From assembly GCA_016220175.1 (NCBI GenBank), contig JACRHZ010000075.1, positions 1 to 63,373 of the forward strand: DNA of 63,373 nt, in the 5' to 3' direction. Shown here piece by piece: positions 2,912 through 55,173 of the stretch. How positions within the stretch are numbered: the stretch's first letter is position 1; each line of letters begins with the position of its first letter. The notes below the pieces were generated by a model. It did no database searches. It was given only the letters and a program-made list of their open reading frames with translations, and was not told where the DNA came from. Made by a program: the position numbers and the translations under genes. This DNA is from Candidatus Peregrinibacteria bacterium. Lineage in GTDB: Bacteria; Patescibacteriota; Gracilibacteria; CAIRYL01.

Positions 2912-3016
2912 AGAAAAGAAAAAATAGCAGGGGGGATTTTCTCGTGTTTCTGCGGAAAAGGCAACGAAAATCAACTCCGCTGAAGCGGAGTCAATTACGA
3001 ATTACGAGTTGATTCT

Positions 3017-3599: not shown

Positions 3600-3688
3600 T
3601 CGCAAGTTCTATCGAGTGTTGCCTGCGATCAATATCGCTCACAATCTTGAATTCAAAATTCAAAATTCAAAATTTAGAATTTAAAATT

Positions 3689-4960: not shown

Positions 4961-5006
4961 AAAATTGGGTGTGAGAATCTGGTAGAATTGTAAGTGAGGA
5001 AACGAA

Positions 5007-5074
5007 AAGTACAAAGTACAAAGTACAAAATTAAAAAGTAGATAATGATTTTGTACTTTGTACTTTGTACTTTT
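5007..5074. repeat. heptamer (AGTACAA) inverted array forming a long hairpin
   Basis: aagtacaaagtacaaagtacaaaa ... ttttgtactttgtactttgtact. Lies between the membrane-protein stop and the eno start. Confidence 0.8.
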
Positions 5075-5444
5075 AGCTTTGTACTTCGGCGTATCCGCTC
5101 ATTCTCACTGCCACCTGCCCGATGATCGGAATCTTAAAGAATTTTCCTCTTGCGGCAAAAAATCCAACGAGGAAAAGTAAAGTAATTCCCACGGGAAGTG
5201 GAAAAAAAATTGATTTCAGAAAAAACTCATTTGGTTCTCCAGCTTCGAGTGCACGAATTGTATTTTGCACGTACCACAAATAAAAAATAACATCGAGAAG
5301 CGCAAAAGAAGTATTAAGAATGAGCGCTTGCCATAAGTGAAATAACGTCAGCGTATTTTTTTTCTCCTCCATAAGAATTCCCACAAACGCAATGGCTCCA
5401 AAGAAATACGCGAAGAAAATGAAAAATCTCGGATACTTCTCCAT
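5073..5444 (-). CDS. DUF4870-like small membrane protein
   Basis: 123 aa with 3-4 TM segments. HLWQALILN and [10 protein letters not shown] resemble the paralogue at 47625 (HHALQALYLG, GRYYKIPVV). Confidence 0.5.
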
Positions 5445-7108: not shown

Positions 7109-7129
7109 GAGTCAATTACGAATTACGAA

Positions 7130-8452
7130 TTAACTTCCCACGTATTCCTCTATCGCATTCTTCAGTGTCGAATACGTTTTTTTCCTCCTCTCATCATCTC
7201 GATCAAGAGTCGTGAGACGGAAACCATGATACGGACTGAAAAATCCAGAAGCTGGAACCACGCAAATTCCGGTGGTTGCGAGGAGATAATAAGTAAATCG
7301 TTGATCCAGTGGGAATCCCGGGCGAGAAACTTCTTTTTCTATAAATTTTTGAACTTCTTCATTTTCAATGTGGAGCTTCTGCTTATCGTTTAAAATTCCT
7401 TTCTGAAAAAGCGGCATCATATAAAATGCTCCATTTGTTCTATTTACCTTCATTTCTTGAGCTTGAGAAAGAATATCTGCGATAAAATTCCCGTTTTTTT
7501 CAAGTTCTGAATTATAATGTTGAATCCATGCATCAAACTCAGGATGATCATAAATTCGCGACAAAATAAATTGCGGGAGACTTACAGAGCACACTTCCAT
7601 AAGAACTCTTTTTTTCACTCCTTCCGCGTATGAACGAAAATCAGGATCTCTGTCAACATTATGAAATTCAAGCCATCCAGATCTTCCTCCCGGCCATGGA
7701 ACGTCTTTTGAAATTCCCCTCATCACCACAAGTGGAACTCGATTCTGAGCGATTTCCGTAATTTGTGCATATGTATGCCCATTGTATACCATGCGAAAAT
7801 ACACTTCATCAGAAATCAGCATGAGGTGATATTTTTCAGCAATTTGCACGATTTTCTCGAGTGTTTCTGGGCTGTACACAGCGCCTGTTGGATTATTCGG
7901 ATTAATAATAAGAATTCCGGTGACTTCTGGATGTGCTTTTACCTGTGATTCTAAATGTTCTATATTCGGCTGCCAGTTATTTTCCGGATCGAGCATATAC
8001 GAAATAGGCTCTTTCCCAGATGAAAAAGATTCCATCGAAGCATGAGTTGGATAACTTGGAGTTGGTTGCAAAATTCGACTTCCTTCGGGGAGCATGTGAT
8101 AGAGTGCAGAAATTCCGGCTCCGAGTCCGCTCACAAAAAGAACATATTCATAATCGAGTTTTGAAGATGGAGAAAAACGTTTGGCATAATCAACAACCCA
8201 CTTTCTCGCTTCAGGAAGTCCCCTCGAATGAGAATATCCGAACACTTTATCTCCCGGTTTTTGCACTTCTTTTACAATAATTTCTTTGAGGAATGGCGGC
8301 ACCGTCCAACTCTTTGCAATGGGATCTCCAATATTTTCTGAAATAAATTGGAAATGGGGATCCATTTCAGCTAACTTTTGCGCAACATCTACGATTTCAC
8401 GGATGCCATATTTGAGGAGATGGACTTTTGGATTTGAGAGAGAATTGCGCAT
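7130..8452 (-). CDS. PLP-dependent aminotransferase, class I/II (alanine aminotransferase-like)
   Basis: INPNNPTGAVY, and SKD..PGGRSGW containing the PLP lysine. 440 aa. Confidence 0.85.
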   Translation of the reverse strand: MRNSLSNPKVHLLKYGIREIVDVAQKLAEMDPHFQFISENIGDPIAKSWTVPPFLKEIIVKEVQKPGDKVFGYSHSRGLPEARKWVVDYAKRFSPSSKLDYEYVLFVSGLGAGISALYHMLPEGSRILQPTPSYPTHASMESFSSGKEPISYMLDPENNWQPNIEHLESQVKAHPEVTGILIINPNNPTGAVYSPETLEKIVQIAEKYHLMLISDEVYFRMVYNGHTYAQITEIAQNRVPLVVMRGISKDVPWPGGRSGWLEFHNVDRDPDFRSYAEGVKKRVLMEVCSVSLPQFILSRIYDHPEFDAWIQHYNSELEKNGNFIADILSQAQEMKVNRTNGAFYMMPLFQKGILNDKQKLHIENEEVQKFIEKEVSRPGFPLDQRFTYYLLATTGICVVPASGFFSPYHGFRLTTLDRDDERRKKTYSTLKNAIEEYVGS

Positions 8453-11788: not shown

Positions 11789-11875
11789 AAAAGTACAAAG
11801 TACAAAATACAAAATGCCAACAAGAAAAACAAATTTCTTTCCTGTTTTTATACTTTGTATTTTGTACTTTGTACT
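11789..11875. repeat. heptamer (AGTACAA/AATACAA) inverted array
   Basis: aaagtacaaagtacaaaatacaaaa ... tatactttgtattttgtactttgtact. Same word family as 5007 and 40140. Confidence 0.8.
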
Positions 11876-13384: not shown

Positions 13385-13508
13385 GCTCATACTCATTCCG
13401 AAGAGAAATTCTCCCAAAGTTTGCCTTTTTCAGGAGCCTGCAAGTAGTCAGCGGTCAGTAGTCAGTTGTCAGCAAAGGAGATAATGATTATGATCAAAAG
13501 TAACGTTC

Positions 13509-16876: not shown

Positions 16877-17025
16877 AAATTCTAAAAAGCGTATCCGAAG
16901 TATAACGGAAGAATATATAAATTTAAAATTCTAAATTTTGAATCCGCTAAAGCGGATTTGAATTTTGAATTGAATTCAAAATTTCAGCTCGTCATGCGAT
17001 AATCTTCTCGTTCTTTCCTTTTTTT

Positions 17026-18087
17026 ATGTTTTCGGACATTCTCACATCATGGGGAGAGAAAAAATATCGAATTCTACAGGTGAATCATGGAATTTTTCGT
17101 GAACTCGTTTCAGATTTTTCCGAAATTTCCACGCTCCCAGAACCGCTTCGTAAACGCTTTCATCAGGAGAAAATTGAATTTTCTCTTCTAAAGCCGAAAA
17201 AAATAGTAGCGAGTTCTGATGGCAACACGGAAAAAGTACTTTTTCGCACTCACGAAGGGAAATACATCGAATCTGTTCTTATGCATCACAAACGACGAAA
17301 AACTGTTTGTGTTTCTTCGCAAATCGGCTGTCCTGCGGGATGCGTGTTTTGCGCCACCGGAAAACTGGGAATTACGAGAAATCTCGAAACGAGAGAAATT
17401 ATTGAACAGGTTCTTTTTTGGAGTCGCCATCTCAAAAATGAATGGCAGAAAACAAATCCTCAAGAAAAATGGAAACCGCTGAATCCTCCGCATGAGGCAA
17501 GAGTTCGGAATATTGTTTTTATGGGCATGGGAGAGCCACTTTTTAATTATGAAAATGTCGTAGGAGCGATCAAAACTCTCAATGATCCCAAAAAGTTTGG
17601 AATCGGTGTTCGCCATATTACGGTTTCCACTGTTGGAATTATTCCGGGAATTGAAAAACTCATGCACGAAAAACTTGGAGTTCATCTCGCATTTTCTCTT
17701 CATGCTCCTACCGAAGAGTTGAGAAGCAGCTTGGTTCCGATGAATAAAACCTTCTCTCTCACAAAACTCATGAAAGTGCTGGATGAATTTACAAAAATGA
17801 CCGGAAGGAGAATTTTTTATGAATACGTTGTTTTGCAAGGGAAAAATGATGGAGATGAAGATGCAAAGGTGTTAGGGAAACTCCTCGAAAGGCGTCTCGC
17901 ACACGTAAATTTTATTCCCTACAACGTCAATCCTGAATGCGGCGATGATCTCAAAAAACCCGAAGAAAAACGAATTCGAGACATGCAAAAAATTCTCGAG
18001 AAATATAACGTACCATCTACAATTCGCCTCACGATGGGAGATGAAATTGCCGGAGCGTGTGGGCAACTCGCGAGTAAGGAAGAATGA
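17026..18087 (+). CDS. rlmN: 23S rRNA/tRNA A2503-C2 methyltransferase (radical SAM)
   Basis: CVSSQIGCPAGCVFCATG radical-SAM cluster, GMGEPL, and a C-terminal GACGQL. Confidence 0.9.
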   Translation: MFSDILTSWGEKKYRILQVNHGIFRELVSDFSEISTLPEPLRKRFHQEKIEFSLLKPKKIVASSDGNTEKVLFRTHEGKYIESVLMHHKRRKTVCVSSQIGCPAGCVFCATGKLGITRNLETREIIEQVLFWSRHLKNEWQKTNPQEKWKPLNPPHEARVRNIVFMGMGEPLFNYENVVGAIKTLNDPKKFGIGVRHITVSTVGIIPGIEKLMHEKLGVHLAFSLHAPTEELRSSLVPMNKTFSLTKLMKVLDEFTKMTGRRIFYEYVVLQGKNDGDEDAKVLGKLLERRLAHVNFIPYNVNPECGDDLKKPEEKRIRDMQKILEKYNVPSTIRLTMGDEIAGACGQLASKEE

Positions 18088-18160
18088 AGTAGGAATCAGG
18101 AAGTAGGAATTACGAATTACAAATTACAAATTACAAATGAAACGTCCTTATCTGTTCTGT

Positions 18161-18631
18161 ATGAAAGTAAAGGTTCTGGTTGTCGGCAAAACAAAGGAAT
18201 CTTGGTGCAGGGATGGCGAGAAGTTTTATTTTGATCGTGTTCAGCATTTTTGCGATCTCCAAAAAGTGGAAGTGGCGGAAGAAAAAATCACAGAAAGTAT
18301 GACTGATAAGGAGATTGTACAAAGAGAGGGACTGAGGTTGCTGAGTCGAATTGGCAGTGATGAATTTGTAGTTGTCCTCACGCCTTCGGGAAAAAAGCTG
18401 TCTTCCAAAGATTTTGCTGATCTTTTTCGAGAAGTTCGAGACTATAAGGGAGGAAAGATCACGTTTCTTATTGGTGGACCACTCGGACTCTCTAATGAAG
18501 TCATAGGGTCAGCTCAAGCAAAAATTTCCTTCTCAGATATGACATTTCCCCATGATTTATTTCGGATCATGCTCCTCGAACAAATCTACCGAGCGTTTTC
18601 CATCTTGGTCGGAAAGAAATACCACAAATAA
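18161..18631 (+). CDS. rlmH: 23S rRNA pseudouridine1915-N3 methyltransferase (SPOUT)
   Basis: MKVKVLVVGKTK..., ITFLIGGPLGLS, and a C-terminal YRAFSILVGKKYHK. Confidence 0.85.
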   Translation: MKVKVLVVGKTKESWCRDGEKFYFDRVQHFCDLQKVEVAEEKITESMTDKEIVQREGLRLLSRIGSDEFVVVLTPSGKKLSSKDFADLFREVRDYKGGKITFLIGGPLGLSNEVIGSAQAKISFSDMTFPHDLFRIMLLEQIYRAFSILVGKKYHK

Positions 18632-18701
18632 GCAGTAAGCAGTAAGAAGTAAGCGGTAAGTATTTTTGAGCTGCAGCTTACTGCCTATTGCTTACTGCTT
18701 A
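18630..18701. repeat. heptamer (GCAGTAA) inverted array
   Basis: aagcagtaagcagtaagaagtaagcggtaag ... cttactgcctattgcttactgctta. Same family as 37983. Confidence 0.8.
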
Positions 18702-19355
18702 TTTCTCGCTCTTCTCCATCGCTTCTCGTGCAATGCTTTTCCAATCGTATGGAAATCGATAGTTTTCCATTGTCCGAACAACAGTTGCAAACACTTTCCA
18801 TTTCTCCGGTGATTCGAATAAAAACGAGTTTCCATATTCCTGATTCGGATTATAGTCCCGAAGGATTTCGGGAAAATGGTATTTATCAGCGATGGGAACA
18901 ACGCCGTATGAAAGCGCGTTGTGAAGGGCAGTAGCATTTTCTTCATTTCGAGAGAAAAAGAGCATTGCATCGCATCCGGCATTAAGCTTTCGAATATTTT
19001 CGTCTGTATTTTCGAGAATAACAGCGTGCGTTTCATTCTCTTTTGCAAATGTTGTTACGATTCCCTGATATCTTTCCGTTCCAATTCCTAAAAATGCAAT
19101 TTGGATACCAAGAGCCTCAATCCCGGGAAGAATTTCTGAGAGCACATTTGCTCCATTTTTTTCCGTAAGGGGAAGAGAAAATCCAAGGAGAAGTGTTTTC
19201 TTTTCGGGAATAAGTCCAAATTCCTTTTGGAACTCTTCTTTATTCATTGCCTTTTTCTCCAAAGTCTTCGAAGAAAACTTTATATAGATTTTGTTATCAT
19301 ATGCCGCCGATGGCAATCGAGGTTCTTGCTGGGGAATTTGAGCGACTGGATTCAT
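18699..19355 (-). CDS. glycogen-synthase-like GT5 C-terminal domain only, truncated or degenerate
   Basis: Aligns by eye to the GlgA C-terminal half (KKAMNKEEFQKEFGL..., IQIAFLGIG). The N-terminal Rossmann half is absent and the catalytic PSRFEPCG region is replaced by FFSRNEENAT. Confidence 0.5.
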   Translation of the reverse strand: MNPVAQIPQQEPRLPSAAYDNKIYIKFSSKTLEKKAMNKEEFQKEFGLIPEKKTLLLGFSLPLTEKNGANVLSEILPGIEALGIQIAFLGIGTERYQGIVTTFAKENETHAVILENTDENIRKLNAGCDAMLFFSRNEENATALHNALSYGVVPIADKYHFPEILRDYNPNQEYGNSFLFESPEKWKVFATVVRTMENYRFPYDWKSIAREAMEKSEK

Positions 19356-19528: not shown

Positions 19529-20143
19529 ATGTCACTTGTCCAAATTTCAGCTCTTTCTAAAAATGATCTCAGGAAAGAAGTGCTTCAGAAGAGGGCTGCG
19601 CTGCCAAAAGATGCACGTCAAAAATTTTCTCAAGAAATATGTGCCTCACTTCAAAAGCTGATACATCACAAATTTCCCGATGCGGCGAATATCCTCTTTT
19701 ATGTTCCTTATAAAAGTGAGGTGAATATTAAAGCTCTTATAAAATGGGCACTTCTCCATGAGTCATATCATGTGTATCTCCCCAAAATCATTGACCCTGA
19801 ATCTGCTCTTTTTGAGGCGATACGTATTTCTTCATACGACGAAATTTCTCCTGTTTCTGAAAACTATAATCTTTCCGAACCGAAAGGATCGTCTTCGATT
19901 TCTCCTCAAATGCTCGATCTCGTCATTGTTCCGGCAGTAGCAATTGATTTTCTGGGAAATCGTATTGGATATGGAAAAGGGTACTACGATCGATTTTTGG
20001 CAAATGTTTCAGGGCGATGTCAAAAATGGGCGGTTATTTTCTCCTGTCAAAAAGTCGAAAAAGTTCCAGTGGATGAATACGATATTCCCGTTGATGCGTA
20101 TGTTGATGAGAATGGTTTGCGAGGAATAAGGAATAAGGAATAA
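19529..20143 (+). CDS. 5-formyltetrahydrofolate cyclo-ligase
   Basis: LRKEVLQKRAALP and VPAVAIDFLGNRIGYGKGYYDRFL motifs. Confidence 0.8.
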   Translation: MSLVQISALSKNDLRKEVLQKRAALPKDARQKFSQEICASLQKLIHHKFPDAANILFYVPYKSEVNIKALIKWALLHESYHVYLPKIIDPESALFEAIRISSYDEISPVSENYNLSEPKGSSSISPQMLDLVIVPAVAIDFLGNRIGYGKGYYDRFLANVSGRCQKWAVIFSCQKVEKVPVDEYDIPVDAYVDENGLRGIRNKE

Positions 20144-20297
20144 GGAATTGGTAGTACTCATCGCTTATGAAATAAATCTCTGCTACGAATGCCTGAGCAC
20201 CCAGAAAATTCAGAATATTTGCAAAATCTTATTTCTGATGACATGATACATTTGTATGAAAAAGTCCATTTTTTGCGTTCTTTCTTTAAAAAATTTT

Positions 20298-21607: not shown

Positions 21608-21632
21608 GTAGGGGCGACCCTCGCGGTCGCCC
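21608..21632 (+). repeat. REP-like GTAG-headed hairpin upstream of the RAYT gene
   Basis: GTAG-GGGCGACC-ctc-GCGGTCGCCC. Confidence 0.75.
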
Positions 21633-21750
21633 GAAATGACAGATGATAATGAAAATGATTCGATCATCCAAAGTAATAATTTTCGCATGATGAGTTTTGT
21701 CGTACCAAATCTTTCCATCATTATAATATGTGGAAGTTTTTTCGTGGCGC

Positions 21751-22398
21751 ATGAAGGATCTTTACAACAAAAATCGTCGATCAATTCGTCTGAAGGGATA
21801 CGATTATTCACAACCCGGGTATTACTTTATTACGATCTGCACAAAGAATAGAGAGTGTGTTTTCGGCGAGATTTTTCAACAACACATGCGTTTGTCAGCT
21901 TTGGGAAAAATTGTTGATTATGAATGGCGACACATTTCGAATCGATATTCGAATGTAATATTAAATGAATTTATTGTGATGCCAAATCATATTCATGGAA
22001 TCATTATAATTAGTGATGAATTTTTCGTCGGCATATCGGAAGAAATCGTAGGAACGACCTTCGCGGTCGCTCAATGCAATTCGATCGTTCAAAATAATAA
22101 TATGACAGGCGCAAGGTCTATATCATCATTAATTTTGAATGAAAGGGCAGGCGCAAGGCCTGCCCCTACGATTACGATTGGGAATATTGTCGGATCATTT
22201 AAATCATTGTGTGTACATGGATATTTGCAATACTTAAAAAACAAGAACATTCATGATGTTCCTGGAAAATTCTGGCAACGAAATTATTACGAATCCATAA
22301 TTGAGAATGATTCACATTTGGAAAACGTTCAGGCGTATATTCAAAATAATCCTCTGAACTGGAATACTGACCCAGAAAATCTGGAGTTTATTTTATAA
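21751..22398 (+). CDS. REP-associated tyrosine transposase (RAYT, IS200/IS605 Y1 HUH-like)
   Basis: YDYSQPGYYFITICTKNRECVFG, HUH motif MPNHIHGII, and the catalytic-Tyr region FWQRNYYESII. REP hairpins lie next to and inside the gene. Confidence 0.8.
   Translation: MKDLYNKNRRSIRLKGYDYSQPGYYFITICTKNRECVFGEIFQQHMRLSALGKIVDYEWRHISNRYSNVILNEFIVMPNHIHGIIIISDEFFVGISEEIVGTTFAVAQCNSIVQNNNMTGARSISSLILNERAGARPAPTITIGNIVGSFKSLCVHGYLQYLKNKNIHDVPGKFWQRNYYESIIENDSHLENVQAYIQNNPLNWNTDPENLEFIL
22048..22070 (+). repeat. REP-like hairpin inside the RAYT ORF, in frame
   Basis: GTAG-GAACGACC-ttc-GCGGTCGC, translated as IVGTTFAVAQ. Confidence 0.7.
22145..22169 (-). repeat. REP-like hairpin (variant stem) inside the RAYT ORF, in frame
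   Basis: Minus strand reads GTAG-GGGCAGGC-cttgc-GCCTGCCC, translated on the plus strand as RAGARPAPT. A degenerate copy lies just upstream (gacaggcgcaaggtc). Confidence 0.65.
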
Positions 22399-35712: not shown

Positions 35713-35890
35713 ATGGAAATGGATGAGGATAAAATTATTCGGAGGAATTGGATGTGTTAATTTCGAATTTTAAATTTTAAAATTTCTAAATAAATTCTAA
35801 TTTTTAAATCTTAATTTCCAAACATTAAAAATTAGACATTAAGATTTATTTAAAAATTTCAAAATTTCAAAATTAAAAATTCTCCAAAAA

Positions 35891-37182: not shown

Positions 37183-37997
37183 TGTTCATGTCTCCATCTC
37201 TTGGATTCATTGGTGCCGGAAACATGGGATCAGCACTGATTTCCGCGTTTTTAACGTCCGAAAATATCTTGCGAGCAAATCTCAAAATATGCGACCGCAG
37301 CTCTGGAAAACTCGAATATTTTCGAAAAATGGGAATACAAGTTTCGGAAGATCCAAATGTCGTCATCCGTGGATCTGATATCATATTTCTTGCCATCAAA
37401 CCACAAGATGTTCAAACATTTTTTGGTTCTGTTCGAGATTCTCTAAGAAAAAACGTACTTTTAGTATCAATAGCTGCTGGGATTTCAATTCATTTTCTTC
37501 AGAAGATCAGCGATATTTCAAAAGTAATTCGAGTGATGCCAAATACTCCAGCACTCGTAAAAATGGCGGTAGCGGGAATGTTCCCGTCGAAAGAAGTAGA
37601 AAAGAAAGAATATGAATATGTGAAAAATCTTTTCCACACATGTGGCGTTACAATCGACTGTACATCTGAAGAGCAAATTGATGCCATTACGGCTCTTTCA
37701 GGAAGTGGTCCAGCATATTTTTTCCGAATTCTCGAAATTTTTTCTCAAAAAGCACAAAAATTTGGATTTTCTGAATCAGACGCGAAAAACATCGCACTCG
37801 GAACTTTGCGAGGAACAGGAGAACTCGCGCAACAATCCGAAGATTTTTTTCAAACTCTTCGGGAAAAAGTCACATCCAAAGGCGGAACAACGGAGGCAGC
37901 ACTAAAAAAATTTGAAGAACTCAGACTCGAAAATGTCCTAAATGCAGGAATTCAGGCGGCGTATGAAAGGGCGAGGGAAATCAGCAATAAGCAGTAG
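37182..37997 (+). CDS. proC: pyrroline-5-carboxylate reductase
   Basis: LGFIGAGNMGSALI, VMPNTPA, and SKGGTTEAAL. Confidence 0.9.
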   Translation: MFMSPSLGFIGAGNMGSALISAFLTSENILRANLKICDRSSGKLEYFRKMGIQVSEDPNVVIRGSDIIFLAIKPQDVQTFFGSVRDSLRKNVLLVSIAAGISIHFLQKISDISKVIRVMPNTPALVKMAVAGMFPSKEVEKKEYEYVKNLFHTCGVTIDCTSEEQIDAITALSGSGPAYFFRILEIFSQKAQKFGFSESDAKNIALGTLRGTGELAQQSEDFFQTLREKVTSKGGTTEAALKKFEELRLENVLNAGIQAAYERAREISNKQ

Positions 37998-38060
37998 GCA
38001 GTAAGCAATAAGTTCGAATTGAATAACTTATCGCCTATTGCTTATTGCTTACTGCTTGCC
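37983..38060. repeat. heptamer (GCAGTAA/GCAATAA) inverted array
   Basis: agcaataagcagtaggcagtaagcaataag ... cttatcgcctattgcttattgcttactgcttgcc. Confidence 0.8.
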
Positions 38061-40104: not shown

Positions 40105-40202
40105 ATTCAGAGAATAATTTCTAAAATTCAAAATTCTGTTTTGTGCTTTGTGTTTTGTACTTTGTACTTCTATAATATTTCCATCTTTCCGCTTGGAATC
40201 CA

Positions 40203-44655: not shown

Positions 44656-44733
44656 GTCAATTACGAATTACAAATTACGAATTACGAATAAAAAAACTAA
44701 ATACTGACAACTTGATCGTAATTCGTAATTGAC
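44656..44733. repeat. heptamer (ATTACGA) inverted array
   Basis: gtcaattacgaattacaaattacgaattacgaata ... cgtaattcgtaattgac. Confidence 0.8.
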
Positions 44734-47624: not shown

Positions 47625-48248
47625 ATGCAAGAACCTTTTTCCAAGAATATGTCGGAATCTCCATCGAATACCACTGCTCAAAATCTCCCAGATGATATTG
47701 AAAAAAATAAAGATATCGCAGCATTTTCCTACATCCTTATTTTCGCTCCTATTCTCCTCATAAGTCGCAGAGATAGCGACTTTATAAAGCATCATGCACT
47801 TCAGGCACTCTATCTCGGATTTTTCTTTGTGATTTTCGCCATGCTTCCCTGGGGTCTCAATTATTTGAATATTCTCATTGTAGCCGGTGCACTTATGGGA
47901 TTTTTGGAAGCACAGGCGGGACGATATTATAAAATACCAGTTGTTTCTGATCTTATTGTTCGAAAAATTACTCTCGAATCGACTTTTCAGAAACTGAAAA
48001 ATTTCGTTTTTAAAATAGGGAATATTCTGAGAAGAATTTTTACGGAAGGACCTGGATTTGCCGTGAGAGAAACTGCTGAAGCTATTGAAAAGGCTCGCGG
48101 AATTGACGCCCTGAGGGTACACAGCGAAGTTGAAGAAGTGCGAAAAGTTCTCGAAAAAACAAATGAAAAACTCAAGGTTCTGGAAACAGACCTGATTGCT
48201 CTCAAGAGTAACACAAGCTCCAAGCAGGAATTAGGAATTAGGAAGTAG
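47625..48248 (+). CDS. DUF4870-like membrane protein with a C-terminal coiled coil
   Basis: HHALQALYLG and GRYYKIPVV. Paralogous in style to 5073-5444. Confidence 0.5.
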   Translation: MQEPFSKNMSESPSNTTAQNLPDDIEKNKDIAAFSYILIFAPILLISRRDSDFIKHHALQALYLGFFFVIFAMLPWGLNYLNILIVAGALMGFLEAQAGRYYKIPVVSDLIVRKITLESTFQKLKNFVFKIGNILRRIFTEGPGFAVRETAEAIEKARGIDALRVHSEVEEVRKVLEKTNEKLKVLETDLIALKSNTSSKQELGIRK

Positions 48249-48410
48249 GAATTAGGAAGTAGGAATTAGGAAGTAGGAATAAGGAAGCAGGAATAAGGAA
48301 GTAGGAATACGGCTTTATAGAGATGACACTTTTCGAATGTCATTTCTTGAGTGTTGCACCTCTTCCTTATCCATTATTCCTAATTCCTGCTTCCTAATTC
48401 CTACTTCCTT
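48224..48410. repeat. large inverted array of 14-mer (GGAAGTA+GGAATTA) heptamer pairs
   Basis: Left arm 48224-48308 has ~6 units. Right arm 48361-48410 is its complement with ~3.5 units. A central hairpin ATGACA...TGTCAT is present. The arms run into the 3' codons of both convergent genes. Confidence 0.85.
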
Positions 48411-49920
48411 ACAGAAGTGACACAGGATTTTCCATGTCCCTTTGCTCACGTTCAGTGCGAGTAGCATCATTTCTCACCTGCTCAATATGAATTAGGTACT
48501 CTTCTTTCACATTTTTCGTGCAATATACTCCATCAAAACAAGAAGTTTCAAATCCATCGAGTTTTGGATTTCCCTCATGACAGGCGGCGATAAAGTCTTC
48601 GAGATCCTGATAAAAAAGTCCATCAGCACCAATAAATTTCCCAATTTCATCTTCGGTAAGTCCATGGGCAATAAGTTCGTTTCGTGACGGCATATCAATG
48701 CCGTATACGTTCGGATATTTCACCTCTGGAGCAGTGGAAGCAAAATACACTTTTTTAGCTCCTGCATTTCTCGCCATCTCAATAATTTTCTTAGATGTAT
48801 TTCCACGAACAATTGAGTCATCAACGAGAAGGACATTCTTATCTTTGAATTCTAGAGAAATAGCATTGAGTTTTTGTCGAATAGATTTTTGCCGAATTTC
48901 TTGTCCTGGCATGATGAAAGTTCTGCCAATGTACCGATTCTTTACAAAACCTTCGCGATATTTCACGTTCAGCTTATGAGCAATTTCGATAGCCGCAGTA
49001 CGACCAGAATCTGGAATGGGAATTACCACATCAATATCGTGATTTTTTAACTTTTTCAGAATTTTTTTTGCGAGTTTTTCTCCCATTCTGAGGCGTGCTT
49101 TATATACGGAAATTTTATCAAGAATCGAATCTGGTCTCGCGAGATAGACGAGTTCAAAAATACACGGACGATATTCCGTGTGATCCGCGCATATTTTATA
49201 TTCGTATTCATTTGAATTAAACGGGAAATAAATGCATTCTCCCGGAAGCACATCACGAATTATCTCGAATCCAAGGCTGTCCAGAGCAACCGATTCAGAG
49301 GCAACCATGTATTCTGTCCCGAACGGTGTTTTTCGTTTTCCGAAAATAAGCGGCCGAATAGCGTATGGATCACGAAAAGCAATCATGCCGTGATCTGCAA
49401 TAAGAGCGACAGCCGCATAAGCGCCACTACATCTCTTATTGAGTCGGGTGACTGCGGCAAAAATATCATCTCCGCTCAGTTTGATTTTATTGCACTGCTG
49501 AAGCTCATGCGCGAGAATATTGAGGAGAATTTCTGAATCAGACGTGGTGTTCAAATGCCGACGATCTTTTTGAAAAATTTCTTCCGCAAGTTCATCTGCA
49601 TTTACGAGATTTCCATTATGACCAAGTGAAATTCCAAACGGAGCATTTACATAAAAAGGCTGGGCCTCAAGTGGAGAAGCACAGCCTGCAGTTGGATAAC
49701 GCACATGTCCTATTCCGACATTTCCAACGAGATCCTTCATATTTTTTGTGCGGATCACATCTCTCACAAGACCATTTCCTTTGTGCATGAAAAAATTCCG
49801 CCCCTGAATTGTGGTAATTCCTGCGGCATCTTGTCCCCTGTGTTGGAGAACAGTAAGAGCATCGAAAATATCCTGATTCGCCGGATATTGCCGATTAATA
49901 ATACCAACAAGACCGCACAT
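48409..49920 (-). CDS. purF: amidophosphoribosyltransferase
   Basis: MCGLVGII N-terminal nucleophile, and the PRPP loop [11 protein letters not shown]. Confidence 0.95.
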
Positions 49921-49981: not shown

Positions 49982-50020
49982 CAATTACGAATTACGAATT
50001 ACGAATTACGAATTACGAAT
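49982..50020 (+). repeat. tandem heptamer array (ATTACGA x5)
   Basis: caattacgaattacgaattacgaattacgaattacgaat. Confidence 0.85.
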
Positions 50021-50068: not shown

Positions 50069-51583
50069 TCATGCGCGAAACCGAAATCGGGCTTTAAAAT
50101 GTCGAAGTGAAAGCTCTTTGCCGTAAATCACATCCACGGGGGGAATTTTATCGCGATTTTCAAAAAGTTTTTGTATCGCTTGAGCAGCAGCAGTGAGATC
50201 TTGTTCCTCATATCGTAAACGTGGTACAGCGAGCCGCACAAAGTTTACTTCGGGAAATGTTTCTTTCTGTGACACCGAATCATAGGATCCAAATGCAAAA
50301 TTGCCGAGTTCACATGCTCGATGTCCGTACCCGGCAAGAAGAAGTGCTGTAAAAGAAATTCCTCCAAAATCTCCCGGAGTCATTTTTGTACCAGCAAAAA
50401 ACCGATTCATGTCAATATATACGGCATGTCCACCGAATGGCTGTAAAACTGGAACCCCAGCGTCCGCGAGGGTTTTTCCAAAATTTTGAACCTGCCTGAT
50501 GCGAGCAGTAAGATACTCTTCTTCGGTCACTTGTTTGAGTCCATACACGAGCGTCATAATATCCCTTCCCGAAAGACCTCCATACGTTGGATGTCCCTCT
50601 TTCATGATCTGGTAATTCATGAGATCATCGAGCATTTTGGGATATTTCTTATGAAAAAGTCCACCATGCTTTATAAAAAGTCCGCCTCCCATATTTACAA
50701 GCCCGTCTTTTTTGAAACTCATCGTAAATCCATCTCCATGGGAAAAAATCTCTTTCACAATCGCTGGTATTCTTTTTTCTTGATACTCGCTTTCGTGCTG
50801 CTGAATGAACCACGCATTTTCTGCAAACCGGCACGCATCCAAAAAAAGAGGAATATCATAAGAGTGAAGTAACTCTGCAACTTCGCGAATATTTTGAAGA
50901 GAAACCGGCTGCCCACCTCCGGTGTTATTTGTAATGGTGAGAAAAACAAGAGGAATTCTGTTTGCAGAGGTTTCTAGCAGGCTTTGGAGCCTTCCTATAT
51001 GCATATTCCCCTTAAAGTAGGATGAAGATGATTCATCCTTGAATTCTTCACAAAACAAGTTTTGTGGTTCAATTTTATTTGCTGTGATATTCGCTTCAGT
51101 TGTATCAAAATGCCCATTGCTCGGGATAATGAGGTTATCTCCGAGCTTTCCAATATGGGAAAAAAATGCATCTTCTGCAGCTCGTCCTTGATGGAACAAA
51201 AATGCATTTGGAGATTCTTCTGTCTCTATGTGCCAAAAATCTTCACCAAATGTTTCTCGGATTTGGTCTCTGAGCAAAAAATATCCAGCATTTGATCCGT
51301 ACGCTTCGTCGCCTTTATGAAGAGCTGCCCATTGTTCTGAAGTCATTGTGGTCACTCCAGAATCGGAGAGGAGATCACACCCGGTTACCATTTCTGATGG
51401 GAAATAAAAAATATTGAGACCTACTTCTTCAAGTACTTTTGTTCTCATTTCTGGAGAGCAGATTTTTTTAAACTGTACGGAATGATTTATGTATGCTCGA
51501 GGGAGTGTTTCGAGGGTTTTTTCATGTGGAAAATTTTTGAGAAGAAGCGAGAGATTCATGTGGGGAAAAAAATTTGGTCTCAT
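50069..51583 (-). CDS. beta-eliminating lyase (tryptophanase / tyrosine phenol-lyase family)
   Basis: SDSGVTTMTSEQWA and SFKKDGLVNMGG (PLP lysine). Start trimmed to 51583 because the longer ORF overlaps tsaD. Confidence 0.85.
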   Translation of the reverse strand: MRPNFFPHMNLSLLLKNFPHEKTLETLPRAYINHSVQFKKICSPEMRTKVLEEVGLNIFYFPSEMVTGCDLLSDSGVTTMTSEQWAALHKGDEAYGSNAGYFLLRDQIRETFGEDFWHIETEESPNAFLFHQGRAAEDAFFSHIGKLGDNLIIPSNGHFDTTEANITANKIEPQNLFCEEFKDESSSSYFKGNMHIGRLQSLLETSANRIPLVFLTITNNTGGGQPVSLQNIREVAELLHSYDIPLFLDACRFAENAWFIQQHESEYQEKRIPAIVKEIFSHGDGFTMSFKKDGLVNMGGGLFIKHGGLFHKKYPKMLDDLMNYQIMKEGHPTYGGLSGRDIMTLVYGLKQVTEEEYLTARIRQVQNFGKTLADAGVPVLQPFGGHAVYIDMNRFFAGTKMTPGDFGGISFTALLLAGYGHRACELGNFAFGSYDSVSQKETFPEVNFVRLAVPRLRYEEQDLTAAAQAIQKLFENRDKIPPVDVIYGKELSLRHFKARFRFRA

Positions 51584-51668
51584 TGTGTCTGAAATGTGGA
51601 GTGAGGACAAATAATTTTGGAACACTTTTCTATTTCCAGTACAATATCGTCGCTTATTTACGAAGATA

Positions 51669-52706
51669 ATGAAAATTCTTGGCATTGAAACATCGTGCGA
51701 TGAAACGGCAGCATCAGTCGTAAAAGATGGGTATGGAGTCTTGTCAAACGTTATTGGATCATCAGAGAAGCTCCATGAAGAGACGAAAGGGATTGTGCCG
51801 GAAATTGCGGCACGCGATAGCGCTTTAAAAATCGCACCCATTCTCCAAAAAGCTGTTCTCGATGCGCGTGTTTCGTGGGAAGAAATTGATGCCATTGCCG
51901 TTACAAATGGTCCAGGACTCCTCGGATCGCTCCTCGTCGGAATTGAGGCTGCGAAAACACTCGCACTGCTTTATAAAAAACCACTTATTCCCGTATTTCA
52001 TATTGCTGGGCATCTTTTTTCAAATATTCTTGAACGAAAGGAATTGCCGCATTTTCCGGTAATTTCACTCACTGTTTCTGGAGGTCACAATGATCTTTAC
52101 GTGTGGGAAAGGCTTTCTGAAATTCAAAAACTCGGATCAACGATTGATGATGCCGCGGGAGAGGCATTTGATAAAGGAGCTCGAATGCTCGGGCTTCCTT
52201 ATCCAGGAGGACCTCATCTTTCTCGAATTGCTGAAGGCGGCGACGCTCAAAAAATTCATTTTCCACGACCAATGAAACAGAGTGGAGATTTCAATTTTTC
52301 ATTTTCAGGTCTCAAAACAGCGCTGTTTTATGAAATTCGTAATCGAGGAGGGCTTCATGAAATTTCTGATTCAGAAAAAGCCGATCTCGCTGCGTCATAT
52401 CAAGAAGCAATCGTTGAGATACTTCTCCAAAAACTATTTTCAGCGGCGGATGCATATTCAGCAAAGGAAGTTCATCTCGCTGGCGGAGTTTCGGCAAATA
52501 AGAGGCTTCGCGAACGATTTCTCGAAGAAGCACAGAAACGAAATCTTCTCACGCGGATTCCAGAAAAAATGTCATATTCTACCGACAATGCCGCCATGAT
52601 TGCAGCGGCGGGATATGTGATGTGGGAAAATGCATCGAAAGAAACGCGAAAAACATTTACAATTCAGAATTTAGAAGTGAATTTGTCACATGAATTTCGA
52701 ATGTAA
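51669..52706 (+). CDS. tsaD: tRNA N6-adenosine threonylcarbamoyltransferase
   Basis: MKILGIETSCDETAASVV, VSGGHN, and GGVSAN. Confidence 0.93.
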   Translation: MKILGIETSCDETAASVVKDGYGVLSNVIGSSEKLHEETKGIVPEIAARDSALKIAPILQKAVLDARVSWEEIDAIAVTNGPGLLGSLLVGIEAAKTLALLYKKPLIPVFHIAGHLFSNILERKELPHFPVISLTVSGGHNDLYVWERLSEIQKLGSTIDDAAGEAFDKGARMLGLPYPGGPHLSRIAEGGDAQKIHFPRPMKQSGDFNFSFSGLKTALFYEIRNRGGLHEISDSEKADLAASYQEAIVEILLQKLFSAADAYSAKEVHLAGGVSANKRLRERFLEEAQKRNLLTRIPEKMSYSTDNAAMIAAAGYVMWENASKETRKTFTIQNLEVNLSHEFRM

Positions 52707-54634: not shown

Positions 54635-54723
54635 GGTGCATTTGGGAAATTTTGAATTTTAAATTCTAAATTTTAAATTTTTTTTAATCTAAAATCTAAA
54701 ATTCAAAATCTAAAATTATCTAT

Positions 54724-55005: not shown

Positions 55006-55173
55006 GAAATTTTTAATTTTTAATTTTTAATTTTAAATTTTGAAATTTCTAAATAAATCTTAATGTTTAATTTCTAATTTTTAAAATCAGAAAAATGACT
55101 GCGAAGGTTTTTGTTTAAAAATTACGATTTAGAAATTATTTTGAAATTTGAAATTCGAAATTTAAAATTAACT

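Follow-up and report, generated by a model that had tools for sequence, protein, structure and literature searches.

Dispersed heptamer arrays in a Peregrinibacteria genome, best read as gene-less hairpins of the rRNA intervening-sequence type

Introduction

ORF-bearing intervening sequences (IVSs), which extend the tips of conserved rRNA helices, interrupt the rRNA genes of Coxiella burnetii, Leptospira, and other bacteria. The IVS in helix 45 of the Coxiella 23S rRNA, which bears the S23p ORF, forms a 28-bp stem in which 3 copies of the heptamer GACAGAT precede this ORF of the PF05635 family (PMC4990558). Strains vary in the number of these repeats, the first of which is where RNase III cleaves to excise the element (PMC4990558). 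ORFs of the PF05635 family are also known in rRNA inserts of candidate-phyla bacteria, where their function is unknown (PMC11270868), and the family has been described as similar to Avd, the accessory protein of diversity-generating retroelements (PMC10053308).

Heptanucleotide long simple-sequence repeats are a second class of described elements. They include GGGAATC in Xanthomonas, for which inverted arrays have been described, and GGGGAYT in Nostoc, show a period-7 excess confined to intergenic DNA, and vary extensively in length and sequence between related species (PMC4692102). The excess of heptamer repeats in bacteria, and the idea that it reflects the footprint of the polymerase, go back to a 2007 survey as cited in PMC4692102. 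Direct repeats of another 7-nt word, TAACTGA, are found in intergenic regions of Beggiatoaceae, Cyanobacteria, and Bacteroidetes, often beside start codons, with a patchy spread that suggests horizontal transfer and no evident mechanism (PMC4679880). Dispersed intergenic palindromes that act as landing sites for insertion sequences are also known as REP or REPIN elements, which have a conserved, GTAG-headed palindrome of 20 to 40 nt and are associated with RAYT transposases. To our knowledge, the heptamer repeat excess of bacteria has been noted for decades without explanation. Cyanobacteria carry further 7-nt units, STRR1 to 3 (CCCCAGT, TTGGTCA, and CAACAGT). The papers on heptamer repeats and rRNA IVSs cited here do not tie intergenic heptamer hairpins in general to PF05635 cassettes, and such a link is barely in print.

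Results

The window analyzed in this work is one whole contig (63,373 nt) of a Candidatus Peregrinibacteria genome, hereafter G000 (1.49 Mb in 79 contigs, 96% complete, 39.5% GC). An initial annotation of the window had described a small vocabulary of 7-nt words that recur as tandem arrays, and genome-wide TRF confirmed a genuine period-7 excess that far exceeds chance expectation: 469 arrays (14.1 kb) have period 7, whereas 56 and 99 have periods 6 and 8, respectively. When only perfect arrays of at least 3 copies were counted, 36 had period 7 and no other period between 2 and 15 had more than 2, and AATT repeated 4 times in phase occurred 92 times at period 7 and not once at periods 5, 6, or 8 to 11. 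As in the heptanucleotide long simple-sequence repeats, the arrays consist of at least 3 head-to-tail 7-nt units, and within an array neighboring units are the most alike. The arrays represent about 1% of G000 DNA and are present in roughly one in four spacers with a length of 40 nt or more; 71% of them are mostly intergenic, in a genome whose intergenic share is 10.5% on a crude gene map made by greedy choice of the longest ORFs. Their position within contigs, their imperfect units, and the unique sequence on either side show that they are not assembly artifacts. Unlike the repeats of Xanthomonas and Nostoc, those of G000 are built from other, A/T-rich words that do not form G4 structures, belong to a candidate-phyla lineage, and comprise several coexisting words common to genera; a tie to PF05635 does not appear in the papers on those repeats. 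TAACTGA is a single word with a proposed translational role, found almost only in direct orientation (1 inverted set in 170; PMC4679880), whereas G000 has many words and frequent inverted pairs. None of the STRR1 to 3 units was among the 40 commonest of the 100 canonical period-7 units of G000.

The focal hairpin of the window (48226-48409) consists of a left arm with 11.9 units of AGGAATT/AGGAAGT and a 14-nt super-period (48226-48308), a 67-nt interior without an ORF that has a small inner hairpin, GATGACA...TGTCATT (48309-48375), and a right arm with 4.9 units of TTCCTAA/TTCCTAC, the complement of the left-arm word (48376-48409). Folded as RNA, this region has an MFE of -91.5 kcal/mol (z of -10.6 versus shuffles). 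The left arm provides the last codons and the stop of the plus-strand gene at 47625-48248 (ELGIRK*, 48248), and the right arm adjoins the stop of purF (48409-49920, minus strand). In a metagenome scan for near relatives using purF, the closest match had 64% identity.

All other loci named in the initial annotation were likewise found by TRF to be 7-nt tandem arrays of the words given there, and the described spill of arrays into coding ends was borne out, as at ELGIRK* above and in the next 2 hairpins, both formed by AAAGTAC and GTACTTT. The first (5006-5086) lies between enolase and a 123-aa gene that stops inside its AAAGTAC arm, from which the C-terminal EVQS* (5073) derives. A heptamer hairpin directly upstream of enolase was found in G000 and in G001, a genome of another genus of the same family (C8:~21990-22085), and in these 2 only among 18 genomes examined; the words have drifted (AAAGTAC in G000, AAAGCCA/AAACACA in G001) and the upstream neighbor gene differs. 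The second (11790-11875) occupies a divergent spacer with a conserved TTGACA box just downstream, and in the G001 counterpart of this spacer the box is kept and the array is absent. The longest uvrC ORF has its TTG start inside this array, 7 codons before the real methionine, so that a spurious YFSLLT precedes the uvrC methionine at 11798. Two further hairpins lie between convergent genes: TAAGCAG/GCTTACT at 18629-18703, and AGCAGTA/CTTATTG at 37983-38057, between the P5CR and T2SSE ATPase genes. The AATTACG/CGTAATT hairpin at 44659-44730 has the ends AGTCAATTAC...GTAATTGACT, and nested hairpins with outer AATTAC arms and inner AAAGTAC arms also occur.

Solo arrays of AATTACG were found on the plus strand at 49983-50020 (5.4 perfect units), at 2993-3007 (a short array adjoining a small GC hairpin), and at 7114-7132, where 2 convergent genes are separated by a 21-nt spacer that consists almost entirely of the array. 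Those of AGTAGTC/AGTTGTC (13443-13472) and TTTGTAC/TTTGTGC (40137-40169) have 4.3 units each, and the plus-strand AGGAATA array at 20122-20148 (3.9 perfect units) overlaps the last codons (GIRNKE*) of the gene at 19529-20143. The whole RlmN-RlmH spacer is filled by a composite solo array (18077-18138) of AGGAAGT grading into AATTACA, in which the word changes gradually from AGGAATT through ACGAATT to ACAAATT. Within it (18088-18136), AGGA recurs every 7 nt until 26 nt before the RlmH start, a Shine-Dalgarno-like series that could affect the translation start. The AT-rich arrays comprise 5.6 units of AATTCAA (3650-3688), a hairpin with the GC core AATCCGC TAAA GCGGATT (16920-16990), arrays of AATTTTA, AAACATT, and ATTTCAAA (35766-35881), an AAATTTT/AAAATCT hairpin upstream of a 93-aa ORF (54647-54717), and a palindrome containing the non-periodic stretch AAATAAATCTTAAT (55008-55169); members of this AT-rich family share non-periodic stretches. 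Loops of hairpins with the same word are mostly unrelated, and one AAAGTAC subfamily has a common loop. The window also contains a gene for a tryptophanase-like beta-eliminating lyase (50069-51895) whose closest relatives in species genomes belong to Methanoperedenaceae, Woesearchaeota, and WOR-3 (61%-66% identity), and lateral transfer of this gene is possible. A cyanobacterial source of the DNA, suggested by heptamers at 40% GC, was rejected in view of these candidate-division and archaeal relatives, the 1.49-Mb genome, and the inserts in its 16S gene.

Pairing and location of the arrays were analyzed in the whole genome. Adjacent arrays were arranged as 63 inverted versus 9 direct pairs (median gap of 30 nt), and the inverted pairs have a median MFE of -27.8 kcal/mol. 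The arrays had been described as usually forming inverted arms; inverted pairs clearly exist, but "usually" overstates their frequency, as pairs account for about 126 of 489 arrays and the remainder are solo, a count affected by the fact that TRF misses short partner arms. Most AATTACG arrays are solo. A preference for gene-end spacers was not found either: among spacers of at least 40 nt, 25% of the co-directional, 26% of the convergent, and 21% of the divergent ones hold an array. The words showed no sense-strand bias, solo arrays showed no consistent orientation within contigs of the kind that a replication-strand bias would produce (p = 0.39), and there was no rule that the A-rich arm comes first (33 versus 29). 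Sense RNA folds were more stable than antisense folds in 23 versus 13 cases, which is not significant and does not support RNA-level selection acting via G-U asymmetry. Moreover, no heptamer hairpin between 36 and 56 kb of the window fits the terminator consensus of a GC-rich stem followed by a T-tract, and such sites occur there at chance frequency. Since divergent, promoter-only spacers hold arrays as frequently as convergent ones, and considering the strand and consensus results, the arrays are neither terminators nor specific for gene ends, the former in agreement with the initial annotation. No recognizable target-site duplication, which in MITEs accompanies terminal inverted repeats and a conserved interior, was found around the heptamer hairpins.

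We next consider the distribution of the arrays in the class. The density of period-7 arrays was 315 per Mb in G000 (469 arrays in 1.49 Mb), 604 in G023 (another family), 174 in G001 (GC of 49%), 132 in G005, and 92 in G012, a member of the same order without an excess relative to periods 6 and 8. For comparison, the density at unrelated loci from metagenomes was 44 per Mb. Unlinked loci do indeed share words, and this re-use extends to another genus of 49% GC: AAAGTAC reappears in G001 and G023, and AGGAAGT/AGGAATT in G001, in all cases at different positions. Of 201 class genomes, 111 contained the pattern (AATTNNN)x3.5, with up to 166 hits, and the reversed pattern usually had none. In one class member, G191, 83 reversed (TTAANNN)x3.5 hits versus 1 AATTNNN hit indicate that a different phase or word dominates. 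Across 200 class genomes, the number of PF05635 matches correlated with that of (AATTNNN)x3.5 hits with a Spearman rho of 0.63, a value that is not phylogenetically corrected and leaves AT content uncontrolled; in a within-family permutation, p was 0.0005. There are exceptions in both directions, with 44 hits and no PF05635 gene in G004, and 12 genes and no hits in G166. This correlation could also stem from AT content or from the general repeat load.

The genome G000 has 4 PF05635 genes, all on contigs other than the window, and each of them lies between inverted heptamer arms. Of the 4 arm types, 3 are built from words that are also found in the window. The gene on contig C63 (22010-22324) has AAGCAGT/GCTTACT arms, the word of the window hairpins at 18629-18703 and 37983-38057; the one on C45 has AGGAATT/CCTAATT arms, the focal word; and the one on C65 (44115-44405) has AT-rich arms and shares AAATAAATCTTAAT with the window palindrome at 55008-55169. 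Next to the C45 cassette (C45:25268-25477), a unit of about 90 nt with a CCTAATT arm is repeated 3 times in tandem. The 16S rRNA gene of G000 is about 500 nt over length and contains 2 inserts. The one at the tip of helix 6 (428 nt; C74:18006-18433, positions 1580-2007 of L081) has a PF05635 ORF between (TTGTTNG)x5 and (CCAACAA)x4, and the other, near position 190 (213 nt; C74:18539-18751, positions 2113-2325 of L081), is an AT-rich heptamer palindrome with AAATAAATCCTAAT. In G000 and 5 other genomes, inverted arms were found within 100 nt of 22 of 32 PF05635 genes versus 10 of 427 control ORFs, and, under a strict rule for heptameric arms, at 10 of 32 versus 4 of 427; in some PF05635 arms the repeat unit is 9 or 16 nt long. 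The 4 paralogs of G000 share 17% to 41% identity, and no 2 of them have the same arm word. Between genomes, protein identity and arm-word similarity were uncorrelated overall (rho of -0.02), and in the 5 closest pairs the words were more alike (1.8 versus 3.2 mismatches out of 7). No hairpin of the window contains a PF05635 ORF, and Rfam detected no rRNA in the window, where the arrays sit between protein genes. The frequent words AATTACG and AAAGTAC do not bracket a PF05635 gene in G000. An RNase III gene is present in this genome (C74:1173-1562). In 7 genomes (G151, G101, G089, G047, G157, G164, and G193), PF05635 frames contain 1 to 6 in-frame TGA codons, which is consistent with the TGA-recoding lineages of the class and affects any gene count based on translation table 11.

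The initial annotation had also invoked an active generating mechanism, but no generating enzyme was found, and neither movement nor target duplication of the arrays was seen. The reverse transcriptase encoded in the window was excluded as their maker: it has homologs in only 3 of 200 other class genomes and is missing from most array-rich ones, and one carrier, G015, has no arrays. An IS903-group (IS5 family) element has roughly 18 copies, which are collapsed in the assembly at a total of 35 contig ends (16 of one end type and 19 of the other); examples, outside the window, are C53:44252-44384, C42:1-139, and C17:12754-12889. The end of this element, GGCTTTGTTGCACAAAT, is similar to that of IS903B, GGCTTTGTTGAATAAATC (PMC10569121), and the C17/C53 pair has a common 9-bp duplication, AAGTGGAAG. 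The duplication consensus is ATTNNNAAT, and 28 of the 35 flanks fit AT[TC]NNN[GA]AT. Insertion-excision footprints of this element were discarded as the source of the 7-nt units, the duplication being 9 bp and not 7. The flanks lie inside heptamer repeats in 23 of 35 cases, and 40% of the intergenic AT[TC]NNN[GA]AT sites are also located there; the arrays are therefore the main safe landing pads of the IS903-like element and not its product. The interior of this element is absent from the assembly, and only weak partial matches (E of 1e-4 or worse) were obtained in 200 class genomes and plasmids; the N-terminal peptide of the element, at 21 aa, falls below the length that Pfam or NCBIfam could classify. 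Finally, a RAYT-type, IS200-like Y1 transposase (PF01797) is encoded in the window (21730-22398), with a GC-rich, GTAG-headed hairpin upstream (21608-21632) and 2 similar ones inside the ORF (~22048-22070 and ~22150-22170). A RAYT/REP origin of the arrays was rejected because this transposase has its own hairpins, unrelated to the heptamer arrays, which differ from REP and REPIN elements in having neither a fixed head sequence nor a linked transposase.

Discussion

Altogether, the period-7 arrays of G000 are a real, strongly non-random repeat class that is best read as gene-less hairpins of the IVS type. We estimate a probability of about 60% that they are whole or half stems of such a hairpin family. 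This reading is based on the bracketing of PF05635 genes, the 16S inserts, the correlation across the class, the words found in more than one genus, the excess of inverted pairs, the stable focal fold together with an RNase III gene in the genome, and the parallel with Coxiella. The copies in the window are probably short-loop versions, without the gene, of the hairpin that encloses PF05635 genes. As in the Coxiella IVS, heptamers form the terminal inverted-repeat stem, and G000 has a PF05635-bearing 16S insert of its own; however, the window copies differ from rRNA IVSs in that they lie between protein genes, lack an ORF, and are in many cases single arms, and there are hundreds of arrays per genome with about a dozen words. 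About three quarters of the arrays are without a detectable partner arm, and this, like the frequent words that bracket no PF05635 gene in G000, the mostly unrelated loops, the exceptions to the class-wide correlation, and the lack of an overall correlation between protein identity and arm words, speaks against an IVS-type origin. An active mechanism had been taken to underlie the re-use of words, but this re-use is more readily accounted for if the arrays descend from IVS-type hairpins, elements that carry PF05635 genes as well.

Each element of this family is a long inverted repeat with both arms made of tandem runs of one 7-nt word, an architecture shared with the surroundings of the PF05635 genes of G000 (family name "23S rRNA intervening-sequence protein", an Avd-like four-helix bundle) and with the inserts at helix tips of its 16S rRNA gene. 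The arrays would change in length through slippage or through unequal exchange, in steps of 7 or 14 nt, with the arms remaining complementary, and transcripts are predicted to form near-perfect double-stranded RNA of 20 to 35 bp or more. By analogy with the Coxiella IVS, and thus on evidence from other bacteria only, RNase III would cut this double-stranded RNA, and the arrays may serve as sites of RNA processing or decay rather than as terminators.

The arrays might instead be plain long simple-sequence repeats, born in place from chance seeds by a slippage that favors 7-nt units, neutral, and only incidentally near PF05635 genes. We consider this unlikely, although several observations fit it: the period-7 excess and the polymerase-footprint idea are already in print (the 2007 survey as cited in PMC4692102), the words have no strand bias with respect to transcription or contig, all types of spacer are affected alike, similarity is highest between adjacent units and one word can pass gradually into another (AGGAATT into ACGAATT, for example), and the orthologous G001 spacer lacks the 11790 array. 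However, the same words occur in genera of very different GC content, and random slippage seeds would not give such re-use of words at other places in another genus or family. The predominance of inverted over direct pairs (63 versus 9), the occurrence of arrays as inserts at 16S helix tips, and the specific bracketing of PF05635 genes also argue against it, as does the patchiness of the excess among close relatives, which is nil in G012 and 2-fold in G023.

Even less probable is that the arrays are selected RNA elements of operons, either bidirectional terminators or 3'-end stabilizers comparable to REP or ERIC hairpins. Their stems are very stable, many hairpins begin at or overlap stop codons, and a related hairpin precedes enolase in both G000 and G001, but arrays are as frequent in divergent as in convergent spacers, most of them are solo, sense folds are not significantly favored, the one position checked (the 11790 spacer) is not conserved, and the 36-56 kb region has no hairpin matching a GC stem with a T-tract and such sites only at chance. 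Equally improbable is a dedicated enzyme or binding protein that would read the 7-nt word, the candidate being a PF05635 pentamer with its own word for each paralog: the 4 divergent paralogs (17% to 41% identical) with their different arm words, the 5 closest cross-genome pairs (1.8 versus 3.2 mismatches of 7), and the resemblance of PF05635 to Avd (PMC10053308) are compatible with it, but protein identity and word similarity are uncorrelated overall, some array-rich genomes have no PF05635 match, and in Coxiella the protein is probably not produced at all (PMC4990558).

The arrays have several consequences for the genomes that carry them. They extend or truncate ORFs, which results in false starts and borrowed stop codons, and they hold most copies of the IS903-like element, which break the assembly. 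By analogy with Coxiella, they would also create RNase III sites inside operons. A bolder proposal, which we regard as doubtful, is that PF05635 genes and heptamer-armed hairpins are one selfish element family, with gene-less copies spread class-wide in intergenic DNA and rRNA genes and each protein lineage tied to its own word; if true, it would explain the heptamer repeat excess of many bacteria. If the link between arrays and PF05635 genes holds, a single testable system would unite 3 puzzles, namely the excess of heptamers, the IVSs of rRNA genes, and the PF05635 family, so far without explanation.
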